Assembly: GCA_002412795.1 (NCBI GenBank)
Contig: DHVS01000029.1
Location: 195,282-259,281 of the forward strand
Reading direction: 5' to 3'
Source of the DNA: a bacterium UBP2_UBA5202
GTDB taxonomy: Bacteria > Edwardsbacteria > AC1 > EtOH8
DNA: 64,000 nt
The number at the start of each line of letters is the position of its first letter. Position 1 is the stretch's first letter. Below, in pieces: positions 22,898 to 42,500 of this stretch. The notes under the pieces were generated by a model. It was not told the origin of the DNA. It ran no database searches and saw nothing but the letters and a program-made list of their open reading frames with translations. A program made the translations under genes and the position numbers.

Positions 22898-25714
22898 ATG
22901 ATGGACAAACTGACCATCCGGGGGGCCCGGGAGCACAACCTCAAGAACATAGACCTGGAGATCCCCCGGGACCGGCTGGTGGTGATCACCGGGCTGTCCG
23001 GCTCGGGCAAATCCTCCCTGGCCTTCGACACCATTTACGCCGAGGGCCAGCGCCGCTACGTGGAGTCGCTGTCGGCCTACGCCCGCCAGTTCCTGGGTTT
23101 GATGGAGAAGCCCGACGTGGACTTCATCGACGGGCTTTCCCCGGCCATTGCCATTGAACAGCGGGCGGCCAGCAAGAACCCCCGCTCCACCGTGGGCACC
23201 GTCACCGAGATCCACGACTACCTAAGACTGCTGTTCGCCCGGATCGGCCGCCCCCACTGCCCCAAGTGCGGCCAGCCCATCTCGTCCCAGACCGTCCAGC
23301 AGATCACCGACGCCATTCTGGAACAGCCCGAGGGCACCAAGCTGGCCATCCTGGCCCCGCTGATCCAGAGCCGCAAGGGCGAGTACCGGGAGCTTTTCGA
23401 CAAACTGCGGCGCGAAGGATTTGTGCGGGTGCGGATAGACAAGAAGCTGTACGACATCGACGCTTTACCAGTTTTGGACAAGAACAAGAAGCACGCCATA
23501 GACGCGGTGGTGGACCGGATGACCATCGGGCCCAGGGCCCAGAAGCGGATCGCCGATTCGCTGGAAGTGGCGCTGAAGCTTTCGGAAGGTTTGGTGGCGG
23601 CCATATACAACGACCAGCAGGAAGTGCTCTACAGCGAAAAACTCTCCTGCACCAAGTGCCATATCTCGCTGGGCGAGCTTTCGCCCAGGATGTTCTCCTT
23701 TAACAGCCCCTTTGGGGCCTGCCCGGCCTGCTCCGGGCTGGGCACCAAGATGGAGATAGACCCCGAGGCCCTGGTCCACAACCCGGAGCTGACCGTCAAC
23801 CAGGGGGCCATCTCCCACTACGGCGACCCCATGGGCCACTGGATCGGCAGCCACCTGGAGGCGGTGGCCAAGGCCTACAGCTTTTCGCTGGACGAGCCCT
23901 GGGAAAAGATGTCCCAGAAGAACCGGGACATCCTGCTCTACGGAACGGACAAGGAGGTCAAGGTCCGCTACCAATCGGCCTCAAATGACAACGTCTACCA
24001 GTACCACAAAAAGTTCGAGGGCATCATCCCCATGATGATGCGCCGCTACCATCAGACCGATTCCGACTACGTCCGCTACGAGGTGGAAAAGTTCATGTCC
24101 ATCCTGCCCTGCCCGGTCTGTCTGGGGGCGCGATTGAAGCCGGAATCGCTGGCGGTGAAGGTGGCCGGCAGGTCCATCAACGAGCTGTCAAAACTGTCGG
24201 TGAAGAATTCCCGGCTGTTCTTCGGCTCCGAGCTGAAGCTGAGCGAAAAGGAAAAGACCATCGCCAAGCAGGTGCTTAAGGAGATCAACTCCCGCCTGGG
24301 CTTTTTAACCGACGTGGGGCTGGACTACCTGTCATTGGACCGGCACTCGGAATCGCTGTCCGGGGGCGAGGCCCAGCGCATCCACCTGGCAACGCAGATC
24401 GGCGCTTCCCTGACCGGGGTGCTCTACGTGCTGGACGAGCCCTCCATCGGCCTGCACCAGCGGGACAACGTGAAACTGCTGAACACCCTGGTAAAACTGC
24501 GGAACATCGGCAACACCGTGATAGTGGTGGAGCACGACCAGGAGACCATGCTGGCCGCCGATTTCATAGTGGACCTGGGCCCGGGGGCCGGGGCCGGGGG
24601 CGGCGAGATCGTGGCGATGGGGACGCCCAAGAAGGTGATGCAGACCAAAACCTCTTTGACCGGGCAGTACCTGGCCGGAACCAGGAAGATCCCGGTGCCC
24701 AAGAAGCGCCGTCCCGGGAACAAGCTCAGCCTGAAGCTTTTGGGCTGCCGGGAGAATAATCTAAAAGATCTGGACGTGGAGTTCCCTCTGGCAAAACTGA
24801 TCGGCATCACCGGGGTCTCCGGCTCCGGCAAAAGCACGCTTATCAACGACACCCTGTACCAGGCCCTGGCCCAAAAGCTTTACCGCTCCCGCACCCAGCC
24901 GGGCAAGCATAAAAAAATGGAAGGCTGGGAGAACCTGGACAAGGTGATCAACATAGACCAGTCGCCCATCGGGCGCACCCCCCGCTCCAACCCCGCCACC
25001 TACACCGGGCTGTTCACCACCCTGCGCGAGCTTTTTGCCCTGACCCAGGAGTCCAAACTGCGGGGCTACGCCAACGGAAGGTTCTCCTTCAACGTCAAGG
25101 GCGGGCGCTGCGAGGCCTGCGAGGGCGACGGGATCGTGAAGATAGAGATGCACTTCCTGCCGGATGTCTACGTCCCCTGCGAGGTCTGCAAGGGCCAGCG
25201 CTACAACCGGGAGACGCTGGAGGTGACCTACAAGGGCAAGAACATAGCCGAGATCCTGAGGATGACCGTGGCCGAGGCCCAGGGGTTCTTTGCCAACATC
25301 CCCAAGGTGGCCCGCAAGCTGACCACTTTGGCCGACGTGGGCCTGGGGTACATCCAGCTGGGACAGTCGGCCACCACCCTGTCCGGCGGCGAGGCCCAAA
25401 GGGTTAAGCTCTCGGCCGAGCTGTCCAAGATAGCCACCGGCAAGACCCTGTACATCCTGGACGAGCCCACCACCGGCCTGCACTTTGAGGATGTCAAGAT
25501 GCTGCTGGCGGTGCTGCACCGTCTGGCCGACCTGGGCAACACCGTGATAGTGATCGAGCACAACCTGGACGTGGTTAAGTCATGCGACTGGATTATTGAC
25601 CTTGGCCCCGAGGGCGGCGACGAAGGCGGGTTCGTTTTGGCCTGCGGCACCCCGGAACAGGTGGCGGCCAACAAGGCGTCTTATACCGGGCAGTATTTGA
25701 AGAAGGAACTGTGA
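22898..25714 (+). CDS. uvrA: Excinuclease ABC subunit A
   Basis: 938 aa. [34 protein letters not shown], zinc modules ([27 protein letters not shown]), two ABC signature/Walker B sets. Only convincing + strand gene in the window. Confidence 0.97.
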
Positions 25715-29662: not shown

Positions 29663-30667
29663 TTAGTCATTTTCTTCTATAATTTCAGGAACATAAACCT
29701 TTTTCAACGGGATAAGACCCTTATACTTTGAATCAAACTTTTCGTAATGTTCCATTATCAAATCTACCAGCTCCACCCCATCGATCAAACGTAAATTACT
29801 TTTACTTTTGGCAAAGTTTTTTGCTGAATTAGTAAATGTACCAAGGGTAACAAGCAAACCATACTCATTAGCAGAGACTTTACCATATAAAGCGGAAACA
29901 ATTGGGTCACCAATACTGCCGTCCGTGCTTTTAACTTGTACTTTGATTATTGGCGGTTCAAAGCCCAAATCATCTTTATGGGCGATTATGTCAATTCCAC
30001 CATCAGGTCCTTCCGGGGAGACACGGGTTTTATATCCAATTACGTTTAATAATTGGGCTACAAAATCAGCGAACGGATGACCTTTTAATTCAGTACTTAG
30101 TTGCTTTAGAATAAAATCTTTTGTTGTTTCTTCTATATCCTCTGCCACGATGCCAACTGTTGGATCATTTTTCTCTTCTTTTGGTTCTTGCTTACCTTCC
30201 AAAGATACAATAAATTCATCAGCGTAATTTCTTATTTGGAAAAATGCCATGGCTGAACCTACCTCATATAGGGCGCCTTGGGTAAAGTTTGTCCTTGGGT
30301 GTTTTTTGAGCCATTTAACAGTTCTGGTATGAGGGTATTTATCGCTAATGTTTGGTTCGTATTTATAATCGCCTTCAATAATCCCAATATTAATGGTTCG
30401 CTCTTGTCTTGAAGGATATACTATATAATCGCCTGTTTTCATTTCATGTACAAAACGAAACAATTGGCCAGCATTATTGTATATTTTGCCGGGCTTGTAA
30501 TCAGGGTATACGCTTGTTACTTTGGCTTTGAATGCTTCTCTATTGGGCTTTATTAAAGAAAGATCGCCAATAATTTGCCAGCCCAAAGCAACTTTATCTT
30601 TTTTTAGAAAGAGAGAATCTGCATCACCTTCATGCCCGGCGTGTATGCCCCATACTGGCTTTATCAT
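29663..30667 (-). CDS. Mrr-family (PD-(D/E)xK) restriction endonuclease with N-terminal PUA/EVE-like domain
   Basis: 334 aa. C-terminal Mrr_cat pattern GPDGGIDIIAHKDDLGFEPPIIKVQVKS...SANEYGLLVTLGTFT. The N-terminal about 150 aa (WGIHAG..ALGW..EMKTGDYIVYP..INIGIIEGDYKYEP) resembles PUA-like readers; that part is inference. Confidence 0.78.
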   Translation of the reverse strand: MIKPVWGIHAGHEGDADSLFLKKDKVALGWQIIGDLSLIKPNREAFKAKVTSVYPDYKPGKIYNNAGQLFRFVHEMKTGDYIVYPSRQERTINIGIIEGDYKYEPNISDKYPHTRTVKWLKKHPRTNFTQGALYEVGSAMAFFQIRNYADEFIVSLEGKQEPKEEKNDPTVGIVAEDIEETTKDFILKQLSTELKGHPFADFVAQLLNVIGYKTRVSPEGPDGGIDIIAHKDDLGFEPPIIKVQVKSTDGSIGDPIVSALYGKVSANEYGLLVTLGTFTNSAKNFAKSKSNLRLIDGVELVDLIMEHYEKFDSKYKGLIPLKKVYVPEIIEEND

Positions 30668-30682
30668 TTCAACCCCCTAACA

Positions 30683-32104
30683 CTAAAGTTTAATATTTAA
30701 CTTTTCGACTTCAATGTGGATCCACTTCTCTGCCTCTTTTTCTGTTTTCTCAATAGCCATCTCAACCCCACGCTTGGCGATTTCAAGTAAGGCCTTTGAT
30801 TTCTCGCGGTCGCAAAAAGATTGGTTAATTTTATCGGATATTTTCTTCTGTTGTTCTATTGGTAGAATTGGTATAAGCACATCTTTTATTTGATCTAAGC
30901 GCCAATGGTCAATTATTGAACCACCCACATCACGTTCCATTTGTTTTTGTACAATAACAGAATTTAATACAAGGGTTAGGTATTCTGGTATTATTTCATG
31001 CTTATTTTTTATATGTAAGCGTAGGATACCGCTTGAAGGTATCATTTTAACTGGTTTGTCTTTTAGATAATATGCAATGCCCGGTGTAGCGTCTTTAGAT
31101 AGAAGTATTTCCCCCGCTAAAGGTTGGTAGCCCTCTAATTCTTTGTATACTTTGTCAGATATATATTGTTGGTTATCGTTATTGATCCCATATTTTGAAA
31201 GATTGCTAACTCGTAAAAACGGTATACCCTCTTCTTGGTATTTTTCACTACCTGGCTCAAAACATTTTGTTATTGTTACAATGTCGCCAAGTCTGGCATA
31301 GTTTCTTACGGTTTTAATGGCTTTTTCTATTTCTTCATAGATTGGTCGGTAATATTCTGCATCTATGCGTTCCTTGGCTTGCGTGTCCGAATAGTTTTTA
31401 ACATATGATAATTGCTGTTTTGTTATCCACTTTAAAAACCCAAGTTCGGAAAGAAGGATTTGCTCGGCTTGGATATATAGCTTCTTTGCTTCATTACCAA
31501 TAGCAAATGCTTCTTCAACTTTGGAACGAATTGATTTTTGGAATACATCGGTGGGTAAAAATACCTTAATCTCTTTTAGGTCAGATAAATTCAAACCTTG
31601 TTGGATGGCGCCTCTTGCTCCACGCAAACAAAACAGTTGCCCCACATTTGAATTTAAATAAGCTACTAAATAAAACGGGTCAACCTTTTTAGATCGGATA
31701 ATTGTGCTTTTACAACTAAAGATTGACGAAGCATCTTTCTTAGTAGCAATTGCTACTTTGCCCAAAGTTCCAACAACCGTTACCAATAAATCATTTACCC
31801 TAATGTGGAATTGCGGTAGTTTATTGTAGACCTGCTCCGGTATAAAAGCCGGGGCATCGTCGCTTATTATAAAATCGTTTATATCCCTATTCCGTACATA
31901 TTTAAAAGACGAATTGGGGACATATTGATCCATCGTAACAGTAGAACCAAATGGGCCTATAATAAAAGTGGCATGGTCACTTAATGTACCATTGCCTTTT
32001 TTATCAAGCAGATTAATTTTATCTAATACCTCTGCCCTGTAATACTCGGCATCAACACGCAATTCCAAATTTAAACTGCTGAATTTTACAATGGAAGTTT
32101 GCAT
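30683..32104 (-). CDS. hsdS: Type I restriction-modification specificity subunit
   Basis: 473 aa. Two target-recognition halves separated by repeated conserved helices (VDAEYYRAEVLDKI / IDAEYYRPIYEEIE). Immediately downstream of hsdM. Confidence 0.85.
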   Translation of the reverse strand: MQTSIVKFSSLNLELRVDAEYYRAEVLDKINLLDKKGNGTLSDHATFIIGPFGSTVTMDQYVPNSSFKYVRNRDINDFIISDDAPAFIPEQVYNKLPQFHIRVNDLLVTVVGTLGKVAIATKKDASSIFSCKSTIIRSKKVDPFYLVAYLNSNVGQLFCLRGARGAIQQGLNLSDLKEIKVFLPTDVFQKSIRSKVEEAFAIGNEAKKLYIQAEQILLSELGFLKWITKQQLSYVKNYSDTQAKERIDAEYYRPIYEEIEKAIKTVRNYARLGDIVTITKCFEPGSEKYQEEGIPFLRVSNLSKYGINNDNQQYISDKVYKELEGYQPLAGEILLSKDATPGIAYYLKDKPVKMIPSSGILRLHIKNKHEIIPEYLTLVLNSVIVQKQMERDVGGSIIDHWRLDQIKDVLIPILPIEQQKKISDKINQSFCDREKSKALLEIAKRGVEMAIEKTEKEAEKWIHIEVEKLNIKL

Positions 32105-32107
32105 GAG

Positions 32108-34162
32108 CTATTTCCAAAAGCTTAATTTATCTTTTTTTGCCCACTCTATAAAAGCTTCAGCTATACCATCCGGTAGCTCACCTTTGTGATTATGCAAATC
32201 ATGCTCAACAATAAAATGCCCATATTTATCAAGTTTTTTATCCTTCCCATAAGTATAAATATAATTGTAATCTCCTGAATTATCTTTGCCCGGTCTTTCA
32301 GAAACAGCAAAGAATATTGGATAATCATCTTTTTGAGGACAAAGTTTATCATCCCATTTTTGCAAAAACAAAACACTGGTCTTTGTGCCGGTGTGCGGTT
32401 TAAATGTGTTCACATGCAAACCAACAACCGCCAATATCCTGGCCTTACCAGAAATATATTCTCTTATATCTTTATCTGTTGTATTATTAAACCTACCCTG
32501 TGGCAATACTATGGCTAAGCGACCACCAGGTTTTACAAAATCAAGGTTCCGTTCTATGAAAAGAATGTCCCGACCAACCTTAGGTTTTGGCTTTTTCTTT
32601 TCGTTAAAACCCAATTCATATTTGTGTATAATGCTTGATTCTTTTATATCCCCGGCAAACGGCGGGTTTGCCATAAGAATATCAAAATTGTATTCTTTGT
32701 TGCTGTTTCTGTCCTTTTGTAAAGCTTCTAACCGTTTCAACCCTTTGCCGTATGTGTCCCGCCATTGGTTATCAGTTGTCCTTTGGTCCCAACGATCATA
32801 ATCAAGCGTGTTCAAATGCAAAACATTTGTTTCGCCGTCTCCGGCAATAAGGTTAAGGGTACGTGCAACACGAACGACCTTTTCGTCAAAATCAATGCCA
32901 AACACCCTTAACACATCTTCCTTTTCTTCTTGGGATATCTCTGTATTTTCAAAAAGATGACCGGTTAGGTGGAATATAGTATGGACGGTAAAACCGCAGG
33001 ACCCTGCGGCGGTGTCAATCATATACTCGCCCTTTTTAGGGTTGAGCATTTTTACGCACATGTCTATTACATGCCTGGGTGTAAAATACTGGCCCTTTTC
33101 ACCTTTAGCCGACTTGCTTATTAAATACTCAAAGGCTTCGTCAATGACCTGCAAGTTTGAATTGAATAGTTTGATGTCCTGCAAACTGGAAACGCAAATG
33201 GACAAATGCGAAGGCGTCAAATCAAGTTTGCTGGCATCGGGAAATACCCCCGGCCATTTTTTCTTGGCTTCATCAAACAATTTTTGTATTTTGGCATATA
33301 GCTGGGCTCCAGTTTGCCCGGTATTTCTGAATTCCAGCACTCTAAAAGTATTGTCATCCAAACCAGCTAACGCTTTTTTAATGTCATCGTATGTATATTC
33401 GGGATTTTTACTACCGTCTGCGATACCGGGGAGTTTTTTACTATTTAAAAAATAGCTTATAACGGTTTTATCCTGTTGGCTTTTGTTTTCATCATACAAC
33501 TTGGTAAAAATAAGTTTGAATACCTCTTCAAATACATCAACCCCGGCGTTTGCCAGGACTTCATCCTCCATCTCGGTGATTATGTCTTTTAAAGTCTTGC
33601 CTTCGTTGGGTATTTTGTCCTTAATAATAAGATCGCGAAGAGTAAAGCGTTCTTTTAAAATATCCTCGAGGGTTTGATCCGCTTTTGGAATATCGGTAAT
33701 ATCTTCAAAGAAATTAGGATCTTTACGGTTGTAATGTGAAATCTGCCCGCCGTTTGACCATACACCAATAGGCGCACCGGTAGCGTTGCAATAAGACCTT
33801 AATTGCTCCTTGCCGTCTTTTAATTTAGGTTTTTTAACCTCAACTATTATATATTCTGTGGTCGGTCTATCCTTATCAAAAATGACGATATCGGCCGTTT
33901 TGGTTTCCCGGCCAAACGTAACCGAATGCTCAAAACGAATACGCCGTTTAGGATAGCCATATTCGTTAATAAGTTTTGCGGCGTATAGCTGGCGTACGAC
34001 CTCTTCAGGCTTTAACTGTACTTCCTTATCTCTTATTATGCAAACAACGTAAGGCTTACCCTTGATCACTGTAATTTTAGCTTCAAGGGCTTTAATTTCT
34101 TTTGGGTTAAAGAGAGAAAGGTTATAGTTTGAGTCTTTAAGTATATCAATTATACTAGCCAT
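32108..34162 (-). CDS. hsdM: Type I-like N6-adenine DNA methyltransferase with N-terminal HSDR_N (PD-(D/E)xK-like) domain
   Basis: 684 aa. N-terminal ADIVIFDKD...YIIVEVKKPK nuclease-fold signature typical of HSDR_N. SAM motif DTAAGSCGF. Catalytic LMANPPFAG. Confidence 0.9.
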   Translation of the reverse strand: MASIIDILKDSNYNLSLFNPKEIKALEAKITVIKGKPYVVCIIRDKEVQLKPEEVVRQLYAAKLINEYGYPKRRIRFEHSVTFGRETKTADIVIFDKDRPTTEYIIVEVKKPKLKDGKEQLRSYCNATGAPIGVWSNGGQISHYNRKDPNFFEDITDIPKADQTLEDILKERFTLRDLIIKDKIPNEGKTLKDIITEMEDEVLANAGVDVFEEVFKLIFTKLYDENKSQQDKTVISYFLNSKKLPGIADGSKNPEYTYDDIKKALAGLDDNTFRVLEFRNTGQTGAQLYAKIQKLFDEAKKKWPGVFPDASKLDLTPSHLSICVSSLQDIKLFNSNLQVIDEAFEYLISKSAKGEKGQYFTPRHVIDMCVKMLNPKKGEYMIDTAAGSCGFTVHTIFHLTGHLFENTEISQEEKEDVLRVFGIDFDEKVVRVARTLNLIAGDGETNVLHLNTLDYDRWDQRTTDNQWRDTYGKGLKRLEALQKDRNSNKEYNFDILMANPPFAGDIKESSIIHKYELGFNEKKKPKPKVGRDILFIERNLDFVKPGGRLAIVLPQGRFNNTTDKDIREYISGKARILAVVGLHVNTFKPHTGTKTSVLFLQKWDDKLCPQKDDYPIFFAVSERPGKDNSGDYNYIYTYGKDKKLDKYGHFIVEHDLHNHKGELPDGIAEAFIEWAKKDKLSFWK

Positions 34163-34239
34163 TGCTTCACCTTTTTATATTTGTAAGCGTATAGTTTCTA
34201 TAACTATACGCTTTTTGTGGTTTTAAAGTCAAGCAATAA

Positions 34240-35106
34240 TTATGTTATATATCTCTTTGAATTAGTCGTGCATTTTCTACCAGTTAAGGGTGCGGTAAAA
34301 TAATCTTCATCTAAAAGTTTTACCAATTCTTTTATTTCTTTACGGCTTGTTGGTAATACTATTTTCCCCTCTCTAATGTTGATAGCCACCCCATATTCCC
34401 TACCTACACGTCTAATGTTTGGTATAGTAACATTATCTAGTACTGAGTTCCTTTTTAACAGTGCAATTCTCTTTCTTACTATTTGATTTGAATTTGTTTT
34501 AAATAACTCTCGGTTAGTGATTAAAAACATCTCGTTGTCGATAAATTCATCTATTTCAGCATCGGTTGCCTCTCGATAATACTCCGTTAGGCTCAAAAAC
34601 TTTCTTGTGTTTGCATACGATATAAAATATAAATTACCATCAACGAACAAAGCTGTAATCCTGTCCTGTAGCGTCATGCCTGGCTCTTCCAATTTTGAAT
34701 ACGTTTCCCTACTGTTGATTAAAGTAACACCACGTTTTAAGATTCTCCGTGAATCAAAAACCTGAAATGCTATATACCCATTGTTTTCTACTCGAGGTCC
34801 AAAAAACAAACATTTTAACGATATATTTTCATCATTCAGGTTCAATACCCCACAACTTATAGGGTTGTTTATGGCAGCAAGAATGTCGTCGCTCATTTCA
34901 TAATTAGGTATTTTATAAATCTCGCCCACCTCTGCAGTATAGTCACCAGTAAATTCAATTTGCTCGCATTCAGGATCAATAAATATTTCTTTTTGCCTGG
35001 TTAAATACCTTATTACTTCTGTTTGTACATCAGCAGTTAACGGTATTCGTTTTATGCTTTGCGGATCATTAAGTATCGCGAATAAATTTATAGCTGGTTG
35101 TGGCAT
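34240..35106 (-). CDS. DUF4868-like protein, candidate KwaB of a Kiwa-type defence pair
   Basis: 288 aa soluble protein. SD GGAGG inside the end of the preceding 4-TM gene. Size, partner and RM-adjacent context fit Kiwa. Family assignment is from memory of the architecture, not from a search. Confidence 0.45.
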   Translation of the reverse strand: MPQPAINLFAILNDPQSIKRIPLTADVQTEVIRYLTRQKEIFIDPECEQIEFTGDYTAEVGEIYKIPNYEMSDDILAAINNPISCGVLNLNDENISLKCLFFGPRVENNGYIAFQVFDSRRILKRGVTLINSRETYSKLEEPGMTLQDRITALFVDGNLYFISYANTRKFLSLTEYYREATDAEIDEFIDNEMFLITNRELFKTNSNQIVRKRIALLKRNSVLDNVTIPNIRRVGREYGVAINIREGKIVLPTSRKEIKELVKLLDEDYFTAPLTGRKCTTNSKRYIT

Positions 35107-35108
35107 GT

Positions 35109-35630
35109 TTAAACCTCCAATAACATGTATTCTGTTAGTTGAACAACTGTTTTAACGTTTTTACAGTTGCTTATTGTGTTTTTTGAAATAAGAACATACG
35201 AAATACCACCATCTAAAGTTACTTCATAAAAATGATACTGGTATGGTCCTATACCTATAAGTGGGTTAAAATGATATGCATGAGTTGACCATACCACAAT
35301 AAAAAACAAAACGCCAACGAAACAAAGCACTGGCTTGTTTACTGCATCTGTACTCTGATTAATGAAAGGTAACAGGTAAACAAGGATAAAGCCAACAATC
35401 TCTTTATCAGCAGTTTGTATGGCATCAACTTTAACAGGCATTTTTTCTAGTTTTATTTTAGCCAATTCTAAAATACATTTGCATAGTATTACCAATGCAA
35501 GCGCTATTATAAGATAAACCCAACCTTGCTTAATATCCCATTTTTCACTAAATTTAATAAACCATAACGTTAGCAGCACTGGGGCCAATGATGTGCTAAC
35601 CAATAAAAGTTTTGCTAAACAACTGATCAT
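35109..35630 (-). CDS. Four-TM membrane protein, candidate KwaA
   Basis: 173 aa with four hydrophobic helices (LLLVSTSLAPVLLTLWFI, VYLIIALALVILCKCIL, IVGFILVYLLPFI, VLCFVGVLFFIVVW). 2-nt gap to the next gene. Confidence 0.4.
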   Translation of the reverse strand: MISCLAKLLLVSTSLAPVLLTLWFIKFSEKWDIKQGWVYLIIALALVILCKCILELAKIKLEKMPVKVDAIQTADKEIVGFILVYLLPFINQSTDAVNKPVLCFVGVLFFIVVWSTHAYHFNPLIGIGPYQYHFYEVTLDGGISYVLISKNTISNCKNVKTVVQLTEYMLLEV

Positions 35631-35706
35631 TTTACACCTTACATGCTAATGGTTTATATTTGAATTATTAACTTTATTATACACATATGGGGTGACAAAA
35701 TCACAA

Positions 35707-35955
35707 TTAATATTCTAATGTGAATTTCCGTACTAAAACATGCATTACAACACGTTTTTTCCCACCCCCGGCTGTACCTGATTCAACCAATTTATCAACG
35801 ATTATTTGGCCGGTTTTAAAACATTTTTTATAATCAGCCAATTTTAAATTATGCATTCCTTTCAAGTGTTTTAATATACCTCGCCCTATATCAGGATTAC
35901 CGCATACTTTACACCCTGATGTATTTTGTTGCGTGTTCTTTTTTTTTCGTGGCAT
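35707..35955 (-). CDS. MucR/Ros-like C2H2 zinc-finger protein (82 aa)
   Basis: CKVCGNPDIGRGILKHLKGMHNLKLADYKKCF resembles the Ros/MucR CxxC...HxxxxH finger followed by the (T)PxEYRxKW-like helix. An A9 run lies in codons 3-6. Confidence 0.5.
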   Translation of the reverse strand: MPRKKKNTQQNTSGCKVCGNPDIGRGILKHLKGMHNLKLADYKKCFKTGQIIVDKLVESGTAGGGKKRVVMHVLVRKFTLEY

Positions 35956-35960
35956 TTATT

Positions 35961-36021
35961 GCTCCTTTTTGTTTTGGTTTATTTTCTGACTGCCAAGATC
36001 CACCCGAGAATCCCTCCCCTG
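35961..36021 (-). repeat. Conserved 5' leader, copy 1 (upstream of the MucR-like gene)
   Basis: GCTCCTTTTTGTTTTGGTTTATTTTCTGACTGCCAAGATCCACCCGAGAATCCCTCCCCTG aligns with 36284-36347. 15-nt identical core AGATCCACCCGAGAA. Confidence 0.7.
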
Positions 36022-36064
36022 GGTATCGTTCACGTTTCACATTTCACGATACACTAAAGACCCC

Positions 36065-36277
36065 TCACTGCCTGGTCCCCTCGGTGATGGTATAGGTATA
36101 CCCATACCTCCAGCCCGTTTCCCCGGCCCCGCCCTGGTACCCCAAAGCCAGCGTCCCCTTCTCCCATTTCCGGGCCTCCTCCTCGGCGGCGAACGTTTTC
36201 TCCACCCTCCAGTCCACCGGGTCCCCGTGCTCCTGCTTACTTTTTACCGGATCATCGGTCAAGCCTGCGTATTTCAT
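36065..36277 (-). CDS. Hypothetical 70-aa protein
   Basis: MKYAGLTDDPVKSKQEHGDPVDW...EEEARKWEK...GGAGETGWRYGYTYTI. GC-rich codons. SD AAAAGGAGC. The N-terminal Y-x-G-x-T-x-D-P...EH pattern is loosely GIY-YIG-like, but no confident family. Confidence 0.55.
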   Translation of the reverse strand: MKYAGLTDDPVKSKQEHGDPVDWRVEKTFAAEEEARKWEKGTLALGYQGGAGETGWRYGYTYTITEGTRQ

Positions 36278-36283
36278 CTACCT

Positions 36284-36362
36284 GCTCCTTTTCTTTTGGT
36301 TGTTTGTTTCTGGCCTCTGCCCAGATCCACCCGAGAACCCCTCCCTGTCGGAGGGGTTCTCT
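36284..36362 (-). repeat. Conserved 5' leader, copy 2 (upstream of the 70-aa gene) plus perfect 12-bp hairpin
   Basis: Aligns with 35961-36021. Adds hairpin GAGAACCCCTCC-CTGTC-GGAGGGGTTCTC (36333-36361). Confidence 0.7.
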
Positions 36363-36436
36363 CTTTTGGTCATAACCCGCGCCCCGGCCTTATCCCTGCC
36401 GTTTGCCCGAAAACCCAGCATACTTTTGCCCGGCTC

Positions 36437-36643
36437 GGGCAGGTGCTTTTGGCCGCCCCAACTTGAGGTCGCATTTTGCGGCCTCAAGTTTGACTGTTCG
36501 GTCCGGTTCAGCCGGAACATGAAATCTTCTGGAAACCTGGCCCGGTTGCGATTGACCTGATCATTAAGCCTTTTAACGCTCACCCCGTAAAGCGCCGCCA
36601 GGTCCCGCATCCAGCAGATTTCTTTCCTGAAGACTGGTAACCG
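36437..36643 (-). pseudogene. ORF6N (KilA-N-like) domain remnant
   Basis: (RLPVFRKEICW)MRDLAALYGVSVKRLNDQVNRNRARFPEDFMFRLNRTEQSNLRPQNATSSWGGQKHLP matches the ORF6N core (DLAxLYGV..LNxxVKRNxxRFPEDFMFxL...NLRSQNATSSWGG). It lacks the usual N-terminus and start, and loses similarity after SSWGG. Confidence 0.65.
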
Positions 36644-36680
36644 GTGCAGAAGGGCGCTGCTATCCGTATATTTTCAAACG

Positions 36681-37406
36681 CTATTTGCTGTCTTGTGGCT
36701 CGCGGTTTGAATCGCGGACGACCAAAGTAGTTTCCACCTGGGCATATCTGTTCTTTCTTAGAAATGTATGCCTGCCCAATTTGTCAAAATCACCGTTTAT
36801 CCCGGTAAAGCTCATAACCTGCGTTATTAAAGGCGTATCATCCACGCTCCCGAGTATGCCCCCCAATAGGCCGGTGAGGGCTATAAGTGTGTCTGGTAAA
36901 ATAGATGCGCCGCCGGTGGCAACCGCTTTGACCACATTTTGAATGACGGTCATATAACTTTGATCCTGCTGAAGTTTTTGCAGGGCCGCCCCCGTATCGC
37001 GGATACCCTTATTGCTCTTGATTATTGAGGCCACCAGATGAATTTGGCTGGGGGGCTTTAAACTTTCGCTTGTTGGTTCCCAATAATATGCCGTGCGTTC
37101 AACCGGCAGTTCCTCGTTATCATCAACATTGGCAAAGCCTTTTATGCTTATTGTCTGCGGATTCCCTCCAAGGTTATCCACCGTTGAAAGCAGGAGGTAA
37201 AGATCCGAGTAACGGACAATCCAAGGTATGTAAGCTTGCTTATTATCAAGAATGAGCACCCGGGCCAGGCGCAATTCAAGCCCGGTAAGTTGATTGGAGG
37301 TTGGTATTCCCACCAGGCCGTAGCTTTTTACTTCCGCCAGGCTGATTGGCGCAGACGGCAGACTCATAGAGTCCACGTACAAAGTCGGCTTGATATTTAG
37401 GCTCAT
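36681..37406 (-). CDS. Hypothetical 241-aa protein of unknown family (second gene of the DUF900 operon)
   Basis: Strong SD (CTAAGGAGAATT-ATG). No Cys. Gly-zipper-like hydrophobic segment ATGGASILPDTLIALTGLLGGILGS. No motif recognised. Confidence 0.6.
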   Translation of the reverse strand: MSLNIKPTLYVDSMSLPSAPISLAEVKSYGLVGIPTSNQLTGLELRLARVLILDNKQAYIPWIVRYSDLYLLLSTVDNLGGNPQTISIKGFANVDDNEELPVERTAYYWEPTSESLKPPSQIHLVASIIKSNKGIRDTGAALQKLQQDQSYMTVIQNVVKAVATGGASILPDTLIALTGLLGGILGSVDDTPLITQVMSFTGINGDFDKLGRHTFLRKNRYAQVETTLVVRDSNREPQDSK

Positions 37407-37475
37407 AATTCTCCTTAGATTTACTGCTATTGGTTTATGATAACGATATTTTTAGCCTGGGCGCCGGTAGCAGCC

Positions 37476-38434
37476 CTATTGATTAAGCAAGCTCCGGTCA
37501 ACGCCTCTCAGGATATCTCTGATCAACGCCAGGGGTTCTTCTTCATCCAGCGCTTCCGAATGAGTATCCTTTTCGCCGGTGATGATATCTGAGATATCTA
37601 TATCGCAGACATTGTCATAAACATCGGCCCGGCCGGCCAGCCCGCTCCGGCCCAGCCGCCTGGTGCCGAAATGCTTCAAGCCCGCCGAAGCCCCCAGCAC
37701 CTGGTCTTTGCCGGTATACAGCGCCGTGATCCGGTAGCACAGGTTGGCCATCAGACTGCCGTCGCTTTCCGCCGGCTGATGCTTCTGAAAAATGTCGTTG
37801 TCCACGTCCGCCGCCACCATCACCAACTGGTGGACCAGCGTGATCAGCTGGGGATTGTTAAGCTGGCGGGAGGCGATGGCCAGGGCTTTCTGGATCACGT
37901 AATTTCCCATGCTGTGGGCGATGATGGATATCTTGGCTTTACAGGGCTTAGCCTTGTCCTTTAAGGCCAGGTGTTGGTTGGTAAGCAGGACGTTGTGCAG
38001 GCTGACCAGCATTTTGGCCAGTTCGGGCCCCGAGGCCCGGGCGTCCTCCCGGTCCGGCAGGTAACCGTAGACCGCGTCATTGGACGGCCAGCTGAAAAGA
38101 ACCAGCGCCCCCAGGCTGCCGGGACCGGAATATAGCTTGGATTTCAGGGTCATGTAGCGTTTTACGGAATCTTCCCATCCGTTATTGTACCCGTGGACGA
38201 ACAACGAAATGTGCTTTTGATCCTCGTTTTTTCCTCCCCTATCTTCGGGAATTCTAAGGCAATATCCGTCAAAGCCGCTGCAAATTCTCCCGGTTGGCAT
38301 TTCTTCCACCAATCCGGTTTTAGGTAATCGCCGCCGTTGCGCGCATTGTAATAGTACTGCATCTTTTTTCCCCTGTTTTTCCCCCAGATGCCGTTTTCGA
38401 ATATGCGGTTTGTCACCATGAATGAATCCGGCAT
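37476..38434 (-). CDS. DUF900-type alpha/beta hydrolase, reading frame interrupted by a -1 frameshift at an A6 run (38227-38232)
   Basis: Frame of ORF 38162..38434 gives the family-typical N-terminus MPDSFMVTNRIF.... Frame of ORF 37476..38534 continues with HISLFVHGYNNGWEDSV...LFSWPS...ISIIAHSMGNYV (nucleophile elbow)...VMVAADVD. The first about 100 aa of the 352-aa ORF look non-protein-like. Confidence 0.75.
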
Positions 38435-38683
38435 AGTATATTCCTTTCTTCTTTACCTGGTTAAATAATCGGCAATAAGATTTTCCGTCCTGCGGGTTTT
38501 CCCTGCGCCATGCGCAACCAGTTTTAAGTTCCACTTTATAAATGCTTTTCAGCCAGCCCCAAAAGCAGTCTTGTGCACCTGCCCGGTTTGCCTTTTTCCA
38601 TTGGTAACCGCTTTAAGCTATAAGCCGTATGCTATACGCTGTACCCTAAACCCTAAATCCCAACCCATTGCAATTACTAACCT

Positions 38684-38975
38684 TATCCCCTTGCTTACCC
38701 CCAATTCCCCCCAGGGGATATACAATTCCCCCCAGGGGGAATTCTTTTCCCCCAAGGGGAGCAACCATATCCCCCAGGGGATATTTAATCCCCCCAAGTA
38801 GAAATTATCCTTCCCCAAGGGGCGCGGCAGTTTCCCCAAGGGGGAAGACTCCTTCCCCAAGGGGCAATTACTTTCCCCTTTGTTACACAGTTCCCTCCCC
38901 CTGGGGATATTGCCAATCCCCAGGGGGAAACTGTTTTCCCCCGCCTAGCGCTGGCCCCCTTTTTCCCCGGCAGGG
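38684..38975. repeat. Array of about 12 phased 21-bp repeats, each with a CCCC-N(1-2)-GGGG palindrome (iteron-like / protein-binding array)
   Basis: Units start near 38704, 38725, 38746, 38768, 38788, 38810, 38831, 38852, 38873, 38895, 38916, 38935. Examples: TTCCCCCCAGGGGATATACAA, TTCCCCCCAGGGGGAATTCTT, TTCCCCAAGGGGCGCGGCAGT, TTCCCCAAGGGGGAAGACTCC. Intergenic, between the 121-aa gene and the DUF900 gene. Confidence 0.8.
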
Positions 38976-38988
38976 TGCGGTCAAAAAA

Positions 38989-39354
38989 TTACGCGCTCTT
39001 TTGCTTCTTGCCCCTGGACGCTTCCTTGGACATCTGCTCGCGGATCTTGCGCAACTGCTTGGACAGGGTCTGGTCCTTGCCGATGACGCCGACCATGGCG
39101 TCCATCATCGAGGAGGCCTGGATATAGGCCGCCGTGGTGGAAGCCACCGCCTTTTGGGTGGCCTTGTGCAGTTCGGCCTTCTTGGCCTCCTGGGCCGCGT
39201 CGTCAACAAAGGCCTGGTTGGTGGCTGTCTCTAAGGACGTGGTCTTGGCCGTGGTATCGAACCCGGATGCCTTGAGCGCGGCAGCGTTGTCTTTAAGGAA
39301 CTGGACTACCAGCTTGCAGAACGCCATCATCTGGGCATAGGTCAGCTTGGCCAT
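38989..39354 (-). CDS. Hypothetical all-helical 121-aa protein
   Basis: GC-rich codons. SD AAAGGAGC. Ala/Lys/Gln-rich with basic tail (KEASRGKKQKSA). No family recognised. Confidence 0.6.
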   Translation of the reverse strand: MAKLTYAQMMAFCKLVVQFLKDNAAALKASGFDTTAKTTSLETATNQAFVDDAAQEAKKAELHKATQKAVASTTAAYIQASSMMDAMVGVIGKDQTLSKQLRKIREQMSKEASRGKKQKSA

Positions 39355-39572
39355 GGGGTGCTCCTTTCAGATTTGGTTGTGGTTTTGTTATAGCTATAAG
39401 CTGTAAGCCTTCAGCTGTAAGCTTCTAATTACCGGCTGCTGGATAGCGGAGAACCTTCACGCTTCGCTTTTTGCGGCCCGGTGCCTGCCGTCCGGTTGTC
39501 TTGGCGGATATGCCTGAAGGAACACAGCCCTGCGTCCCTTCAGGCTTTTTAGTATAGATGTACTGCCCGGCG

Positions 39573-42500
39573 CTACTTCAGCGCCACCATTTTCTTAGTG
39601 CTGTTGAACTCGCCCGAGACTAAGCGGTAGAAGTAGATTCCTGCCGCCGCCTGTCTGCCCGCTTCGTCGTTGCCGTTCCATTTGACGCTGTACGGCCCGG
39701 GGTTTTGGGATTCGTTGACTAAGGTTTTTACCACCTGACCCAGGGTGTTGTAAATTTTCAGACTGACCTGGCCCTGCTTGGCCAGCTGGTAACTGATGGT
39801 TGTCTGCTTGGAGCAGGGATTGGGCGCATTCTGCATAAGTTCGTAACGGTAAGCCATGGGTTTGGCTTCGCCCATATCAGCTTGCGCTCCGCCGTTGCCG
39901 GTCTTTCTGCCGGTGGCCTTGTCATAAGCGAACAGTTCATATTTATCGCAGGTGACGATGGCCCCCTTCTTCAGGTTTACGATCTTAAGAACGCCCTCGC
40001 CATCCTGACTGACCGGCTGGGGCAGGTCCTTCTCGAAAACAGCCATTTGGCCGCTGGGAACTTTAACTGTACCCAGCGAGACATTGTCCACCCATATCTG
40101 ATAGATATAATCGGCCTTGTCTGAATATTGCTGATACAAGCTTATCTTCAGGGTGTTCTTTTGTTCGCTGTTCAGGGTCGGCAGGTAGTATTCCAAAGCC
40201 GTGCTGTCGTAGTCCACGGTTATGCCAGTGGATTTTTTAGCGCTATAGGTTATAAAGCCGTCCCTTTCCAGGGTATAGATTGACGGAGTTTCACCGCCCA
40301 CATCGGCGGACAATGCTGCTGTCACCTGGCCTGCCGAATCCCGGGCAATAAGTGAATATAATGGGCCGGTACCTTCGGTCCAAATGGTGGTCATCTTATT
40401 ACCGTCGGCATTTTGGCGATAGGCGATCTGGGGATATACAGAAGGCTGGGTCGGGTTTTTACTGTAATCTTGTTCCACCTGCCAGGCAAAATCGGCATAA
40501 TTCGCATAACAGGCCTTATAAAGTTCGTCTGTGGTTGCTTCGCTCCAGGCGATGTAATTGCCGTCAAATACCGGGTTAAGCGATGCGGTTAATGGGCTAT
40601 TGCTCACGTTCTCGGAACCTTCCCAGCTGAACGGTGTATACAAAGCTTTTGCCAATGCCAAGCCCCAGTTGCCCTTGTTGTGGAAGATATCGTTGCCCTC
40701 CTGCCAGACCACATGGATATCGCCGTAGAAGGCCAGCGAAGGCTCGTCGGAAACAACCTCCGGGCTTTGGGACAGGTTGACCTTGTTTTTCCAAGCGCTG
40801 GTATAAGGATCGTAAACTTTCCAGTATATTTCGCCCTCGTAGTCCCAGGCTACATGTATGCCGCCTTTGGAATCTATGCAGATGGTGGGAGAGGCGGGAT
40901 TCTCCTGTGGGTCGCCGCCGGAACCGCTGGTGGAATCCAGGGTATTCCAGGCAAACGCAGTCCCTCCAGCCGGGCGGAAGCCGTAAAGCAGTTTCCAGTA
41001 CCAGGTATAGCCTGAGGCGCTGTTCCAACTGTCAATTTTTTCCAAGACCAAATGGGTTCCGGCAGAATTTACCACCATGGCCGGCGGACTGGCCTGATGC
41101 ATCTGGTCCCAATAGCCCGGCGCTTCCATAAGGGTCTCAACATTCTGCCATGTGGCGCCGGTATGTTTGGCCGTTTTTAATACCCAGCCCACGCTGGGGG
41201 TCTCGGCTTTCCAGGCAATCACCGTGTCCGGGCCGTAAATACCGATGACGGAGGAGGGGTTTGTTCCTTCAGCGTAAACGGCAGGACCCGAAGCCCAAGT
41301 GCCCGACCAGGTATACCCGTCGTCTATGGAATTTTGGTAGAACACCGAATCGGCCGAGGTATATGTTAAATGCAGTTTGCCGTTGCTGTCGTAAAGCAAA
41401 TGCCGGCCGTTGTTGTAGGCCGTGGCCATTGCTGTATTGGAATTGGTGAAGGCCTTGGTGTTAATTTGTACATAGGGACTCCAGCTGCCGATATTGCAAG
41501 ATCTGTCCATGGCCGTCACATGCATTTGCAAGGTTTGACCAATTAGATAATCCGGCACAATGTAAGACCAGGTAGTTCTTTCGATGGGGGCAGAGTGATT
41601 AACCGTATATTTAGAAGATGGTTTGCTGGCAAATACGCCCACCGGTTCGGGGCAGACCCAGTAGCCACCAAAATTTGGTTCTAAAGTGGGGTCCTCTTCC
41701 GGCCAACGCAAATTAATGCATTTAGTAACAGCATCATAATAGCCAGTAGGTTGCGCAACTTGAGGCGGCTTGTCAGTGTCAAAAGTAGTTATGCTTACTT
41801 CAGTAGTATCGGTTTCCGCCTTGGGTATCCCAACCATTATATCCCAATACATTACCCTATAAGTATAATTTTTGCCTATAGAGACATTTTCATCAGTATA
41901 GGTAGTGCCCCCGTCTACAGAATCTATCAGAACATAAGCCGTGGAACCGTTAACTTTTCTGTATATATAGTTCCATCTATAGTTATTATAATCCCATTGT
42001 AGCATTATTTTTTTTCCATGTTGCCCGGCTAATTGCGTAGCAGTTAAACTAATAGGAAACCTGAGATATTCCTCTTTTAACCCGCCAGCTGGCCCAACAT
42101 TATAGTTGGCATAATTTGTCCGGTAATTAACCCATATATTTTTGTTCCATTCCATTTTTACAAAAGTATTGCCCATGCGTGTTACTGCAAAGGTTGTTTT
42201 ACCCTGCCCCGCTCCACCAGTAAAAGCCCAATCCCTATATTCCCATGGACCGGCAATCGTGGGCGCAGTATAAAAATTTAAGAGCACACCAGACGGCACA
42301 CCCGGTTGTTGTTCCCAAGTTACTTCTAATTCATTATAAATCTGATTATTTACGCTTAAGACACTAAGATCATAAGTTTCACCTTCTATTATGGCATTAT
42401 GGCTTCTCATAATCCGGCAACTATCGCCGACGGTCCACTGCCCGGCAATATCTCTTAAATTATACGAAGGGTCGTCATAATTGTGATAACCCCAATTTAT

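Follow-up and report, generated by a model that had tools for sequence, protein, structure and literature searches.

A frameshifted DUF900 hydrolase gene and an intact gene of an unannotated family with a predicted C2-like fold beside a bacterial defence island

Results

Two accessory genes adjoin a defence island

The locus lies on the minus strand of a bacterial DNA stretch of 64,000 nucleotides, the whole of which is referred to here as the window. It consists of a DUF900 hydrolase gene split by a frameshift (gene 1) and, downstream of it, an intact gene for a protein of an unannotated family (gene 2; Table 1). Upstream of gene 1 lies a tandem array (~38700–38880) whose periods are 21 and 63 bp, and gene 2 is followed by a truncated ORF6N-type gene, which the models match only over its first ~58 amino acids. 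The Kiwa (KwaA/KwaB), restriction-modification (RM), Mrr-like and ORF6N genes at 29.6–36.6 kb share the strand of genes 1 and 2, and the first-pass annotation was right on both this arrangement and the position beside the 21-bp repeats. Its Kiwa, RM and Mrr-like genes make the neighbouring region, with a GC content of 0.33–0.39, a true defence island. The GC3 values are 0.74 and 0.59 in the two parts of gene 1 and 0.53 in gene 2, compared to 0.26–0.38 in the Kiwa/RM block, and because of this sharp difference we infer that genes 1 and 2 were not acquired together with the island.

Table 1. Features at the locus, in positions of the window
Feature	Coordinates	Strand	Evidence or remarks
Low-GC island: Mrr-like PDC-S02, type I S subunit, type I methyltransferase, KwaB, KwaA	29663..35630	-	
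ORF6N-type gene, truncated, directly downstream of gene 2	36278..36610	-	PADLOC PDC-S05 E=4e-18, residues 2-58; Pfam ORF6N
Gene 2, intact, 241 aa	36681..37406	-	ORF; unannotated family; predicted C2-like beta-sandwich
Gene 2 helical insert, residues 138-184, three helices	36855..36995	-	Predicted model; Gly/Ala-rich hydrophobic segment inside
Intergenic spacer between genes 1 and 2, 69 nt	37407..37475	-	AAGGAG 37411-37416
Gene 1, 3' part, DUF900 alpha/beta-hydrolase core	37476..38228	-	Frame B, stop TAG 37476-37478
Gene 1, 5' fragment	38162..38434	-	Frame A ORF, 90 aa, TAA stop
A6 homopolymer	38227..38232	-	Inferred 1-nt deletion site splitting gene 1

Gene 1 is a frameshifted DUF900 hydrolase gene

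Gene 1 has no uninterrupted reading frame. Only the first 69 codons of frame A (to ~38228) represent the true DUF900 N-terminus (MPDSFMVTNR...EFPKIGEEK), and the remainder of the 5' fragment is out-of-frame read-through to the stop codon. In an alignment with nine homologues the break maps between Pro63 and Asn70, with the invariant Pro63 in frame A and the invariant Asn70, Gln73 and His75 in frame B. Addition of one A to the A6 run restores the frame (...EEKNEDQKHISLFVHGYNN...). As assembled, gene 1 is a pseudogene. The same truncated product is found on four contigs, among them one of assembly GCA_002345865.1, which is not an independent confirmation of the frameshift because its DNA matches the window at 100% identity for 12.8 kb. 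The two-gene operon of the first-pass annotation consequently stands as regards the presence and position of both genes, but its first gene is not one open reading frame. The annotation spoke of a "repaired operon", which implies that the break was known, yet presented its finding as a working operon.

The family assignment made at that stage, from the motifs TNR, FVHGYNN, FSWPS and AHSMGN, is borne out. The repaired 319-aa protein matches the Pfam model DUF900 (PF05990) with E=3.7e-28 and 99 bits, well above the cut-off of 20.5, and PF05990 is also recorded for a truncated 274-aa call of the gene. Besides MVTNR near the start, the protein carries the core motifs FVHGYNN, FSWPS and the GxSxG-type nucleophile elbow AHSMG in its 3' part, the last extended to AHSMGN. 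The elbow serine, Ser175 (codon 37911–37913), is present in all 10 aligned sequences, in which FVHGYN and WPS are conserved too, and the frameshift aside, gene 1 retains all the residues that its homologues share without exception. It belongs to a large, widely distributed subfamily (1,920 clusters at E≤1e-10); more than 100 homologues among the matches listed share 55–61% identity with the repaired protein over 98–100% of its length. Elsewhere the partner genes upstream of subfamily members vary; their products have no Pfam match, and some are rich in hydrophobic stretches. No relatives were found in plasmids, and the DUF900 profile had no match among PDB sequences.

The function of DUF900 was listed as unknown in a 2024 survey (PMC11878206). 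Among the archaeal homologues of cinquedea, a secreted bactericidal phospholipase from archaea, 69% have a recognisable DUF900 domain (bioRxiv 10.64898/2026.06.10.730825). Unlike that secreted enzyme, gene 1 is frameshifted and, judged by eye from the sequence, has no obvious signal-peptide-like start.

Gene 2 is intact and belongs to an undescribed family

The basic description of gene 2 in the first-pass annotation is accurate throughout: a 241-aa protein with no cysteine, a 69-nt gap to gene 1, a Shine-Dalgarno sequence (AAGGAG, 4 nt ahead of the ATG) and a hydrophobic segment, here residues 163–187 (ATGGASILPDTLIALTGLLGGILGS). The N-terminus M-x-LNF is conserved in 17 homologues, which supports the start codon. 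A consensus scan detected no terminator-like hairpin in the spacer, and a promoter scan yielded promoter-like sites at chance level (3 found compared to 2.8 expected).

Searches against Pfam, NCBIfam, PADLOC and PHROG gave no match for gene 2, and a profile search of PDB sequences gave a single chance match (E=0.09). The "orphan" of the first-pass annotation is nevertheless conserved, with ~113 representative clusters at 50% identity and 18 homologue clusters in one search. The family, hitherto undescribed, consists of ~240-aa proteins with a patchy distribution in Bacteria and Archaea, and gene 2 is one of its intact members. Searches of IMG/VR, GenBank phages and PLSDB plasmids found no relatives. 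Asp54, Asp77, Asp95, Asp96 and Asp190 are conserved in the close subfamily, but only Asp190 throughout the family. Four of them (Asp54, Asp95, Asp96 and Asp190) make up a cluster that might imitate the calcium sites of C2 domains. In the literature searched on DUF900, Hydrolase-3TM and "C2 domain + anti-phage", neither this pair nor the gene 2 family is described, and no family of PADLOC-DB v2 matches gene 1 or gene 2 at E≤1, in agreement with the earlier remark that the pair resembles no described anti-phage system.

A C2-like fold is predicted for gene 2

The AlphaFold (AF2) model of gene 2 (pLDDT 85.1, pTM 0.81) confidently predicts a C2-like beta-sandwich with a Gly/Ala-rich helical insert of ~47 residues. 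The insert is bounded by Arg136 and Asp190, both nearly invariant across the family. The conserved N-terminal strand (M-x-LNF...LP) is joined to the core by a low-confidence linker of variable length (residues ~17–38). Hydrophobicity is confined to one borderline segment, the top 19-residue Kyte-Doolittle window scoring 1.65 (residues 167–185).

When the model was compared with PDB structures by Foldseek, C2 domains dominated the matches, less strongly in another PDB search. They include the C2 domains of a Notch ligand (E=1.5e-4) and of perforin, together with cPLA2, NEDD4L, E-Syt2 and PI3KC2a, with E-values of 1.5e-4 to 1e-2 and probabilities mostly of 0.9–1.0. The TM score against perforin C2 is 0.51–0.55 when normalised by the target, while the query-normalised scores against C2 domains are a modest 0.30–0.35. 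The eight-stranded beta-sandwich and its similarity to solved C2 domains belong to a predicted model; the Pfam C2 model does not match gene 2, and identity to C2 structures is 7–11%. The eukaryotic C2 domains (perforin, cPLA2, PLC-delta, the Notch-ligand MNNL/C2, NEDD4L, E-Syt) are the closest structural matches to the predicted sandwich, from which they differ in that gene 2 is stand-alone, prokaryotic and without sequence similarity to them, and has the helical insert that canonical C2 domains lack. A Foldseek search of viral structures (BFVD) gave no meaningful match.

We also considered a gasdermin identity for gene 2 and rejected it: no gasdermin was present among the 50 Foldseek matches listed for each of two PDB searches, and Pfam and PADLOC gave no such match. 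The first-pass annotation had suggested a membrane-active partner. That suggestion fits a predicted fold of the lipid-binding C2 type with a hydrophobic helical insert, whereas the associated gasdermin-like idea is unsupported.

DUF900 and gene 2 do not form a conserved pair

The first-pass annotation proposed a defence pair of DUF900 and gene 2, and named a lack of co-occurrence elsewhere as an outcome that would refute it. The result goes against the proposal. DUF900 was found in 0 of 60 other gene 2 loci, including that of the closest homologue (68% identity), which stands alone behind an AT-rich intergenic region; conversely, gene 2 was found in 0 of 8 loci of the DUF900 subfamily. The locus is a pair of neighbouring accessory genes rather than a conserved two-gene system, and DUF900 is a one-off, now dead partner of a gene 2 family member. 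Since the pair is a one-off and half broken, the evidence says that the claim of a new DUF900-plus-orphan defence system should be dropped. A working operon of this kind would, if true, have been a new defence system; the original proposal is only partly supported, in that the island next door is real, but the arrangement is not conserved, gene 1 is broken and the GC3 is unlike that of the island.

Gene 2 homologues recur beside effector-type enzymes

The enzymes that recur beside gene 2 homologues are C1 and C14 peptidases, patatin, other alpha/beta hydrolases, metallophosphoesterases, GH108 and TIR proteins. A protein combining Peptidase_C1 and DUF676 is encoded 14 nt upstream of a gene 2 homologue in an alphaproteobacterial MAG, and in Hymenobacter the gene for a homologue of this protein (31% identity over 640 aa) and gene 2 are divergent. 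In locus L025 the gene 71 nt upstream encodes Peptidase_C14, which is also in the same cluster in L021, and Peptidase_C1 is 76 nt upstream in L026; in L004 the neighbour is a Trypsin_2-Endonuclease_NS protein. Patatin is directly downstream in several loci, TIR_2 is downstream in L039 and L069, and GH108 occurs in two Hymenobacter genomes. Abhydrolase_6, Metallophos and M15 proteins are also among the neighbours, and one natural fusion (P0024) joins a GH19 endolysin-like domain to the gene 2 domain. Another recurrent upstream partner, of 215 aa and here called unk215, has no Pfam match and only a non-significant one to NlpC/P60 (E=0.64); from its motifs SHCF and YCSAF we guess that it might be papain-like. 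Spacing to the C14, C1, patatin and unk215 partners is operon-like (14–190 nt).

Some surroundings are of a defence type, with CBASS and an RmrA-like gene in L004, RAMP/Csm3 (type III CRISPR) near the homologue in L040, an OLD-family nuclease in L038 and an SLFN-like helicase in L003. PADLOC matches are few among the 150 proteins neighbouring gene 2 homologues, and many homologues have no enzyme neighbour and lie amid housekeeping genes (L005, L006, L010, L027, L045). A single lineage with shared synteny (unk215, gene 2, M4 peptidase) contributes much of the sample, so that independent associations are far fewer than the loci. An all-against-all BLAST of 17 partner proteins revealed no shared adaptor segment beyond expected paralogues, and by eye none of the partner proteins inspected starts with an obvious signal-peptide-like sequence. 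Given the recurrence of diverse hydrolase and TIR genes, a modular architecture, in which an effector enzyme is combined with a protein of the gene 2 family, is plausible, and in this broader form the original proposal survives.

Discussion

The reading that we prefer, with confidence a little short of even and in part on the strength of a structure model, is that the locus holds two accessory genes, the first of them recently dead, and that the gene 2 family acts as a membrane-targeting or membrane-perturbing cassette together with an adjacent effector enzyme. Gene 1 would have encoded a DUF900 serine hydrolase of the esterase or (phospho)lipase type, inactivated very recently by a 1-nt deletion in the A-run. 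The gene 2 protein would be a cytoplasmic component that targets or perturbs the membrane, either alone or with an adjacent peptidase, lipase, phosphoesterase, peptidoglycan hydrolase or TIR effector; its part in a conflict response, or one akin to abortive infection, may be to recruit the adjacent enzyme to the membrane's inner face or to break through the membrane itself. With the DUF900 partner dead, gene 2 is the one gene of this pair that can still be active. Judging from the predicted fold and the neighbours, the family probably contributes membrane targeting or perturbation to conflict modules.

In our opinion the object of interest is the gene 2 family, which is widespread, wholly unannotated and has a confidently predicted C2-like fold that is, to our knowledge, uncommon in prokaryotes. 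Its pattern of neighbours is of the kind that has led to new immune modules before. Confirmation would make the family a new membrane-targeting component of bacterial conflict systems and possibly an evolutionary parallel to eukaryotic effectors with C2 domains. Eukaryotic cPLA2 unites a C2 and a lipase domain, and C2 docks the lipase (cPLA2) or a pore-former (perforin) on membranes; gene 2 homologues beside patatin and alpha/beta-hydrolase genes echo the C2-plus-lipase design in trans. We speculate, as a doubtful extension, that the family is an unrecognised prokaryotic C2-like module for membrane docking or disruption with interchangeable effectors in trans and occasionally in cis. It would then be a bacterial and archaeal counterpart of the perforin/cPLA2 "C2 plus effector" design, the effectors being lipases, caspase- or papain-like peptidases, phosphoesterases, muramidases and TIR proteins.

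It is also conceivable, although on balance somewhat unlikely, that genes 1 and 2 are unrelated accessory genes brought together by chance in a variable, decaying region, with gene 2 serving, for example, in envelope or stress physiology. The two families co-occur in none of the 60 gene 2 loci and 8 DUF900 loci, their GC3 differs at this locus, and gene 2 has a strong Shine-Dalgarno sequence of its own and a closest homologue that stands alone behind an AT-rich intergenic region. Gene 2 is solitary amid housekeeping genes in several loci, and the region contains other gene wrecks (the truncated ORF6N gene besides the frameshifted DUF900 gene). Chance does not readily account for the association with C1-type peptidases, which repeats across phyla, for the operon-like spacing of 14–190 nt to C14, C1, patatin and unk215 partners or for the GH19 fusion; repeated TIR, patatin and caspase-type neighbours are moreover atypical for housekeeping genes.

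An improbable alternative is that gene 2 encodes a protease-activated pore former with gasdermin-like logic, in which the N-terminal strand restrains the protein, a peptidase cuts the linker and the helical insert enters the membrane; the module in the window would have lost or swapped its protease. The conserved M-x-LNF...LP strand, followed by the variable low-confidence linker, is consistent with such a mechanism, and the length of ~240 aa, the beta-rich core and the defence-island setting of some loci recall bacterial gasdermin operons. So do the caspase-, papain- or trypsin-like peptidases, which adjoin gene 2 in five loci (L004, L018, L021, L025, L026; homologues with 39–56% identity to the window protein). 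The window itself has no adjacent activating protease: its partner is an esterase-type hydrolase, and partners elsewhere are mostly non-proteases. The predicted fold differs from that of gasdermins, none of which is among the 50 Foldseek matches listed per PDB search, no bGSDM match arises in PADLOC or Pfam, and gene 2 lacks the N-terminal cysteine of bacterial gasdermins, or any cysteine for palmitoylation. In the co-directional peptidase loci (L018, L025, L026) gene 2 is downstream of the peptidase, in which they differ from gasdermin operons.

Cassettes of the holin-endolysin or Rst_Hydrolase-3TM type resemble the preferred cassette reading in pairing a cytoplasmic wall- or lipid-degrading enzyme without an obvious signal-peptide-like start with a small protein bearing a hydrophobic segment, and the likeness extends to the enzymes through the GH108, GH19 and M15 partners. 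Gene 2 differs from holins and 3TM proteins in being mostly a soluble-looking sandwich with one borderline hydrophobic stretch (a single window at 1.65) rather than a multi-TM protein, and the lack of relatives in IMG/VR, GenBank phages and BFVD argues against a phage lysis cassette.

Quite improbably, the two-gene system could be intact, the frameshift being an assembly or sequencing error or bridged by slippage on the A-run, so that DUF900 and gene 2 would be a working lipase and membrane-docking pair, a unique recombinant of the general architecture. Only one base, in a homopolymer, is affected, and gene 1 is otherwise undamaged with its invariant residues kept. The 69-nt spacer has no terminator-like hairpin, patatin and other alpha/beta hydrolases pair with gene 2 homologues elsewhere, and cPLA2, which joins C2 and lipase domains, is among the Foldseek matches. 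Against this, the truncated product recurs on four contigs, though the contig compared is identical DNA; A6 is short for efficient slippage, and the pair is absent from all other loci sampled (60 gene 2, 8 DUF900).

Finally, we consider it very improbable that the locus is a toxin-immunity pair, with DUF900 as the interbacterial lipase toxin and gene 2 as an immunity protein orphaned by toxin decay: lipase-type toxins commonly precede a small immunity gene, orphan immunity genes outlast toxins, homologues of the bactericidal archaeal phospholipase mostly carry a DUF900 domain, and gene 1 is broken while gene 2 is intact, but one immunity family would not be expected beside C1, C14, patatin, phosphoesterase, GH108 and TIR genes, neither protein starts by eye with an obvious signal-peptide-like or trafficking-domain sequence, and gene 2 is never beside the 8 sampled DUF900-subfamily genes.

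A separate comparison with Rfam gave a single sub-threshold match (rnk_pseudo, 30.8 bits against a gathering score of 55), which we took as chance.

Genes 1 and 2 are not a conserved pair

The first-pass annotation had combined a DUF900 hydrolase gene (gene 1) and the downstream gene for a 241-aa orphan protein (gene 2) into a candidate novel two-gene defence operon. Homologues of gene 2 were collected at 60 loci by exact-protein look-ups, a scan in which each GTDB species was represented by a single genome, and a metagenome scan, which contributed 40 of them; the GTDB-species scan yielded a Thermoplasmata archaeon, an alphaproteobacterium, a Thermodesulfobacteriota MAG, a deltaproteobacterium and three Hymenobacter isolates. 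A tblastn search with the repaired gene 1 detected DUF900 in 0 of these 60 loci, and the closest relative of gene 2 (68% identity) is solitary, located behind an AT-rich spacer without DUF900. Gene 2 was likewise found in 0 of 8 loci, representing four contexts, with close DUF900-subfamily members; there DUF900 is preceded by variable non-Pfam proteins, some of them hydrophobic-rich, or lies beside uvrA. Across the sampled loci the two families are in clean mutual exclusion. Since absence of the pair elsewhere is what the first-pass annotation had itself named as counting against its proposal, we consider it well supported that the pair is not a conserved operon and, with gene 1 also split, the proposal is not upheld. 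Two other explanations of the arrangement to be read beside these counts are that the genes are adjacent by chance and that they constitute a toxin-immunity pair.

Close DUF900-subfamily genes in three collected loci (L064, 4702-5634; L015, 4149-4955; L014, 3575-4927) are preceded by unrelated non-Pfam proteins. Those of L015 and L064 contain long hydrophobic stretches, and the one from Lysobacter has a Gly-rich segment at its C-terminal end (LGTLLGGIGGYVLAQGVG); there are hints that DUF900 has varied membrane partners of its own. In Verrucomicrobiae-type contigs (L066-L068) the DUF900-subfamily gene is directly upstream of uvrA, which in the window is about 12 kb away; its proximity in both is probably a coincidence.

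Features of the window
Feature	Position	Strand	Remark
uvrA	22898-25714		
Low-GC block	29663-35955		
KwaA	within 29.6-36.6 kb	-	PADLOC, E=1e-58
KwaB	within 29.6-36.6 kb	-	PADLOC, E=3.5e-82
Type I methyltransferase and S subunit	within 29.6-36.6 kb	-	PADLOC
Mrr-like PDC-S02 protein	within 29.6-36.6 kb	-	PADLOC
Pseudomonas rnk leader match	36256-36367	+	Rfam, sub-threshold
Truncated/frameshifted ORF6N/PDC-S05 gene	36278-36610	-	models matched by residues 2-58 only
Strong hairpin	36333-36361		
Gene 2	36681-37406	-	241 aa
Gene 1, catalytic core	end 37476	-	frame different from ATG
Gene 1, frame A	38434 (ATG) to 38162 (TAA)	-	ORF reading
A6 run	38227-38232		
ORF spanning array	38618-38860	-	80 aa
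Tandem array	38643-38878		periods 21 and 63 bp

Gene 1 is frameshifted

Every DUF900 hallmark listed at first pass is present in gene 1, but the gene is split across two frames, with FVHGYNN, FSWPS and AHSMG outside the frame of the ATG. One A added to the A6 run gives a 319-aa protein that matches Pfam DUF900 with 99 bits (E=3.7e-28) and aligns end-to-end with homologues of ~320 aa at 55-61% identity, and a frameshifted DUF900 gene is a well-supported description. The break falls between the invariant Pro63 and the invariant Asn70, Gln73 and His75. Because the frame is split at the A6 run with conserved residues on either side, gene 1 as assembled is, judging from its sequence, a very recent pseudogene. 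The alternative is an intact operon masked by a sequencing error. A truncated product of 274 aa is recorded identically for four contigs; the retrieved one (DDWH01000003.1, GCA_002345865.1) matches the window at 100% identity across 12.8 kb and therefore does not represent independent evidence for the truncation. The function of DUF900 is listed as unknown in a 2024 survey (PMC11878206).

Gene 2 has a predicted C2-like fold

Inspection of the ORF confirmed what had been noted of gene 2: the protein has zero cysteines, AAGGAG is located 4 nt ahead of the ATG, 69 nt separate the ORF start from the gene 1 stop codon, and the hydrophobic segment is present (residues 163-187, ATGGASILPDTLIALTGLLGGILGS). 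The peak 19-residue Kyte-Doolittle window (residues 167-185, score 1.65) is borderline as a membrane segment. Gene 2 has no match in Pfam, NCBIfam, PADLOC, PHROGs or PDB sequences; it has 18 homologue clusters in a collection of 5.8 billion proteins, and a profile search gave 113 family representatives at 50% identity. Among 103 members only Pro119, Arg136 and Asp190 are near-universal. Two distant members (P0063, P0091) contain an N-terminal duplicated ~70-aa module (residues ~1-170, motif Y-x-FSNGN-x-IFRN...PTS-x-EG) fused to the gene 2 domain.

AlphaFold2 modelling reached pLDDT 75.8 with 18 sequences and pLDDT 85.1 (pTM 0.81) with 96. The model is a beta-sandwich (strands 40-52, 67-77, 84-94, 104-109, 121-131, 191-201, 211-218, 222-232) interrupted between main strands five and six by three helices (138-146, 149-163, 170-184), an insert bracketed by Arg136 and Asp190; the short N-terminal strand and helix connect to the core through a linker modelled with low confidence. 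The PDB matches listed by Foldseek are mostly C2 domains, including those of Notch ligands (E=1.5e-4, probability 1.00), perforin (target-normalised TM 0.51-0.55), cPLA2, NEDD4L, E-Syt2, PI3KC2a, PLC-delta and dysferlin. Gasdermin is absent from these listed matches, which argues against the gasdermin-like, protease-activated pore former whose fold the first-pass annotation had raised. It is well supported that gene 2 is intact and represents a new family whose predicted fold is C2-like. The calcium- and lipid-binding loops of C2 domains share one tip, and from strand alternation we infer that the helical insert and the subfamily-conserved Asp54, Asp95, Asp96 and Asp190 would sit together at one tip of the sandwich.

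Genomic surroundings

PADLOC bore out the Kiwa, RM and ORF6N genes reported on the same strand as genes 1 and 2 and shows them to form a true block of defence genes. The Kiwa/RM block has a GC content of 0.33-0.39 (GC3 0.26-0.38) compared with 0.52 in the window, and GC3 is 0.53 in gene 2, 0.59 and 0.74 in the two DUF900 parts and 0.69 in the ORF6N fragment. Given this contrast, genes 1 and 2 adjoin a recently acquired island rather than belong to it. Their own stretch includes two damaged genes; from the ORF6N truncation and the DUF900 frameshift, we interpret 36.0-38.5 kb as accessory DNA in decay that borders the low-GC island.

The low-GC block, which looks like a recent horizontal acquisition, contains the Mrr-like, S-subunit, methyltransferase, KwaB and KwaA genes and also codes for an 82-aa zinc-finger-like protein; its 684-aa methyltransferase has HSDR_N_2, N6_Mtase and Eco57I domains. 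The repeat array described upstream of gene 1 was recovered; its units have palindromic CCCC(W)GGGG cores, and its hairpins are among 17 terminator-like sites in 36000-39600 (5.1 expected). The product of the ORF spanning it would consist of heptad-like PWGE/PLG repeats; a 73-aa gene is annotated there in one assembly. The rnk-leader match, which overlaps the strong hairpin, is below the Rfam gathering score (30.8 bits versus 55, E=0.021) and was taken as chance.

Neighbours of gene 2 homologues

Homologues of gene 2 have recurrent enzyme neighbours without any single conserved partner, in a raw tally where many loci are of shared ancestry.

Genes adjoining gene 2 homologues
Neighbour	Arrangement	Where found
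215-aa protein, no Pfam match	immediately upstream, two flanking syntenies	17 loci, one lineage
670-aa Peptidase_C1 + DUF676	14 nt upstream	alphaproteobacterial MAG
Homologue of the 670-aa protein (31% identity over 640 aa)	divergent	Hymenobacter fodinae
Peptidase_C14	71 nt upstream	L025
Peptidase_C1	76 nt upstream	L026
Patatin	directly downstream	several loci
M4 protealysin-like peptidase, Metallophos, Abhydrolase_6	adjacent	several loci
GH108 + PG_binding_3	divergent	two Hymenobacter genomes
Trypsin_2-Endonuclease_NS	divergent	L004; CBASS and RmrA-like gene nearby
TIR_2	downstream	L039, L069
OLD-family nuclease	near	L038
SLFN-like helicase	near	L003
Peptidase_C11	near	L044
RAMP/Csm3	near	L040

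The H. fodinae cluster also includes Peptidase_C14 and Peptidase_M15_4, and in one family representative, P0024, an N-terminal GH19 endolysin-like domain (phrog_181, E=9.5e-33) is naturally fused to the gene 2 domain. Several loci have no enzyme neighbour of these kinds, and a common adaptor segment was not found among the partner proteins.

What survives of the operon proposal is a broader and weaker version, new here, in which the gene 2 family is a candidate modular partner of diverse effectors. The family could represent a cytoplasmic membrane-docking or membrane-perturbing cassette, its protein acting alone or together with an adjacent effector enzyme; the lipase-type partner would be dead in this genome. 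C2 domains have established roles in cPLA2 and perforin. The membrane-cassette reading draws on those roles and on a 2026 preprint on a bactericidal archaeal phospholipase, with a recognisable DUF900 domain in 69% of its archaeal homologues (bioRxiv 10.64898/2026.06.10.730825). We regard the window locus as a degraded one-off and the gene 2 family as a reasonable candidate for follow-up.

In a Thermodesulfobacteriota-like metagenomic lineage (L008, 7292-10545; also L009, L035, L036, L050, L055 and L056) the order is the 215-aa protein (SHCF and YCSAF motifs), the gene 2 homologue, a small TM2-like membrane protein, an M4 protealysin-like peptidase and emfourin, with patatin or DUF362/metallophosphoesterase genes inserted at variable points.
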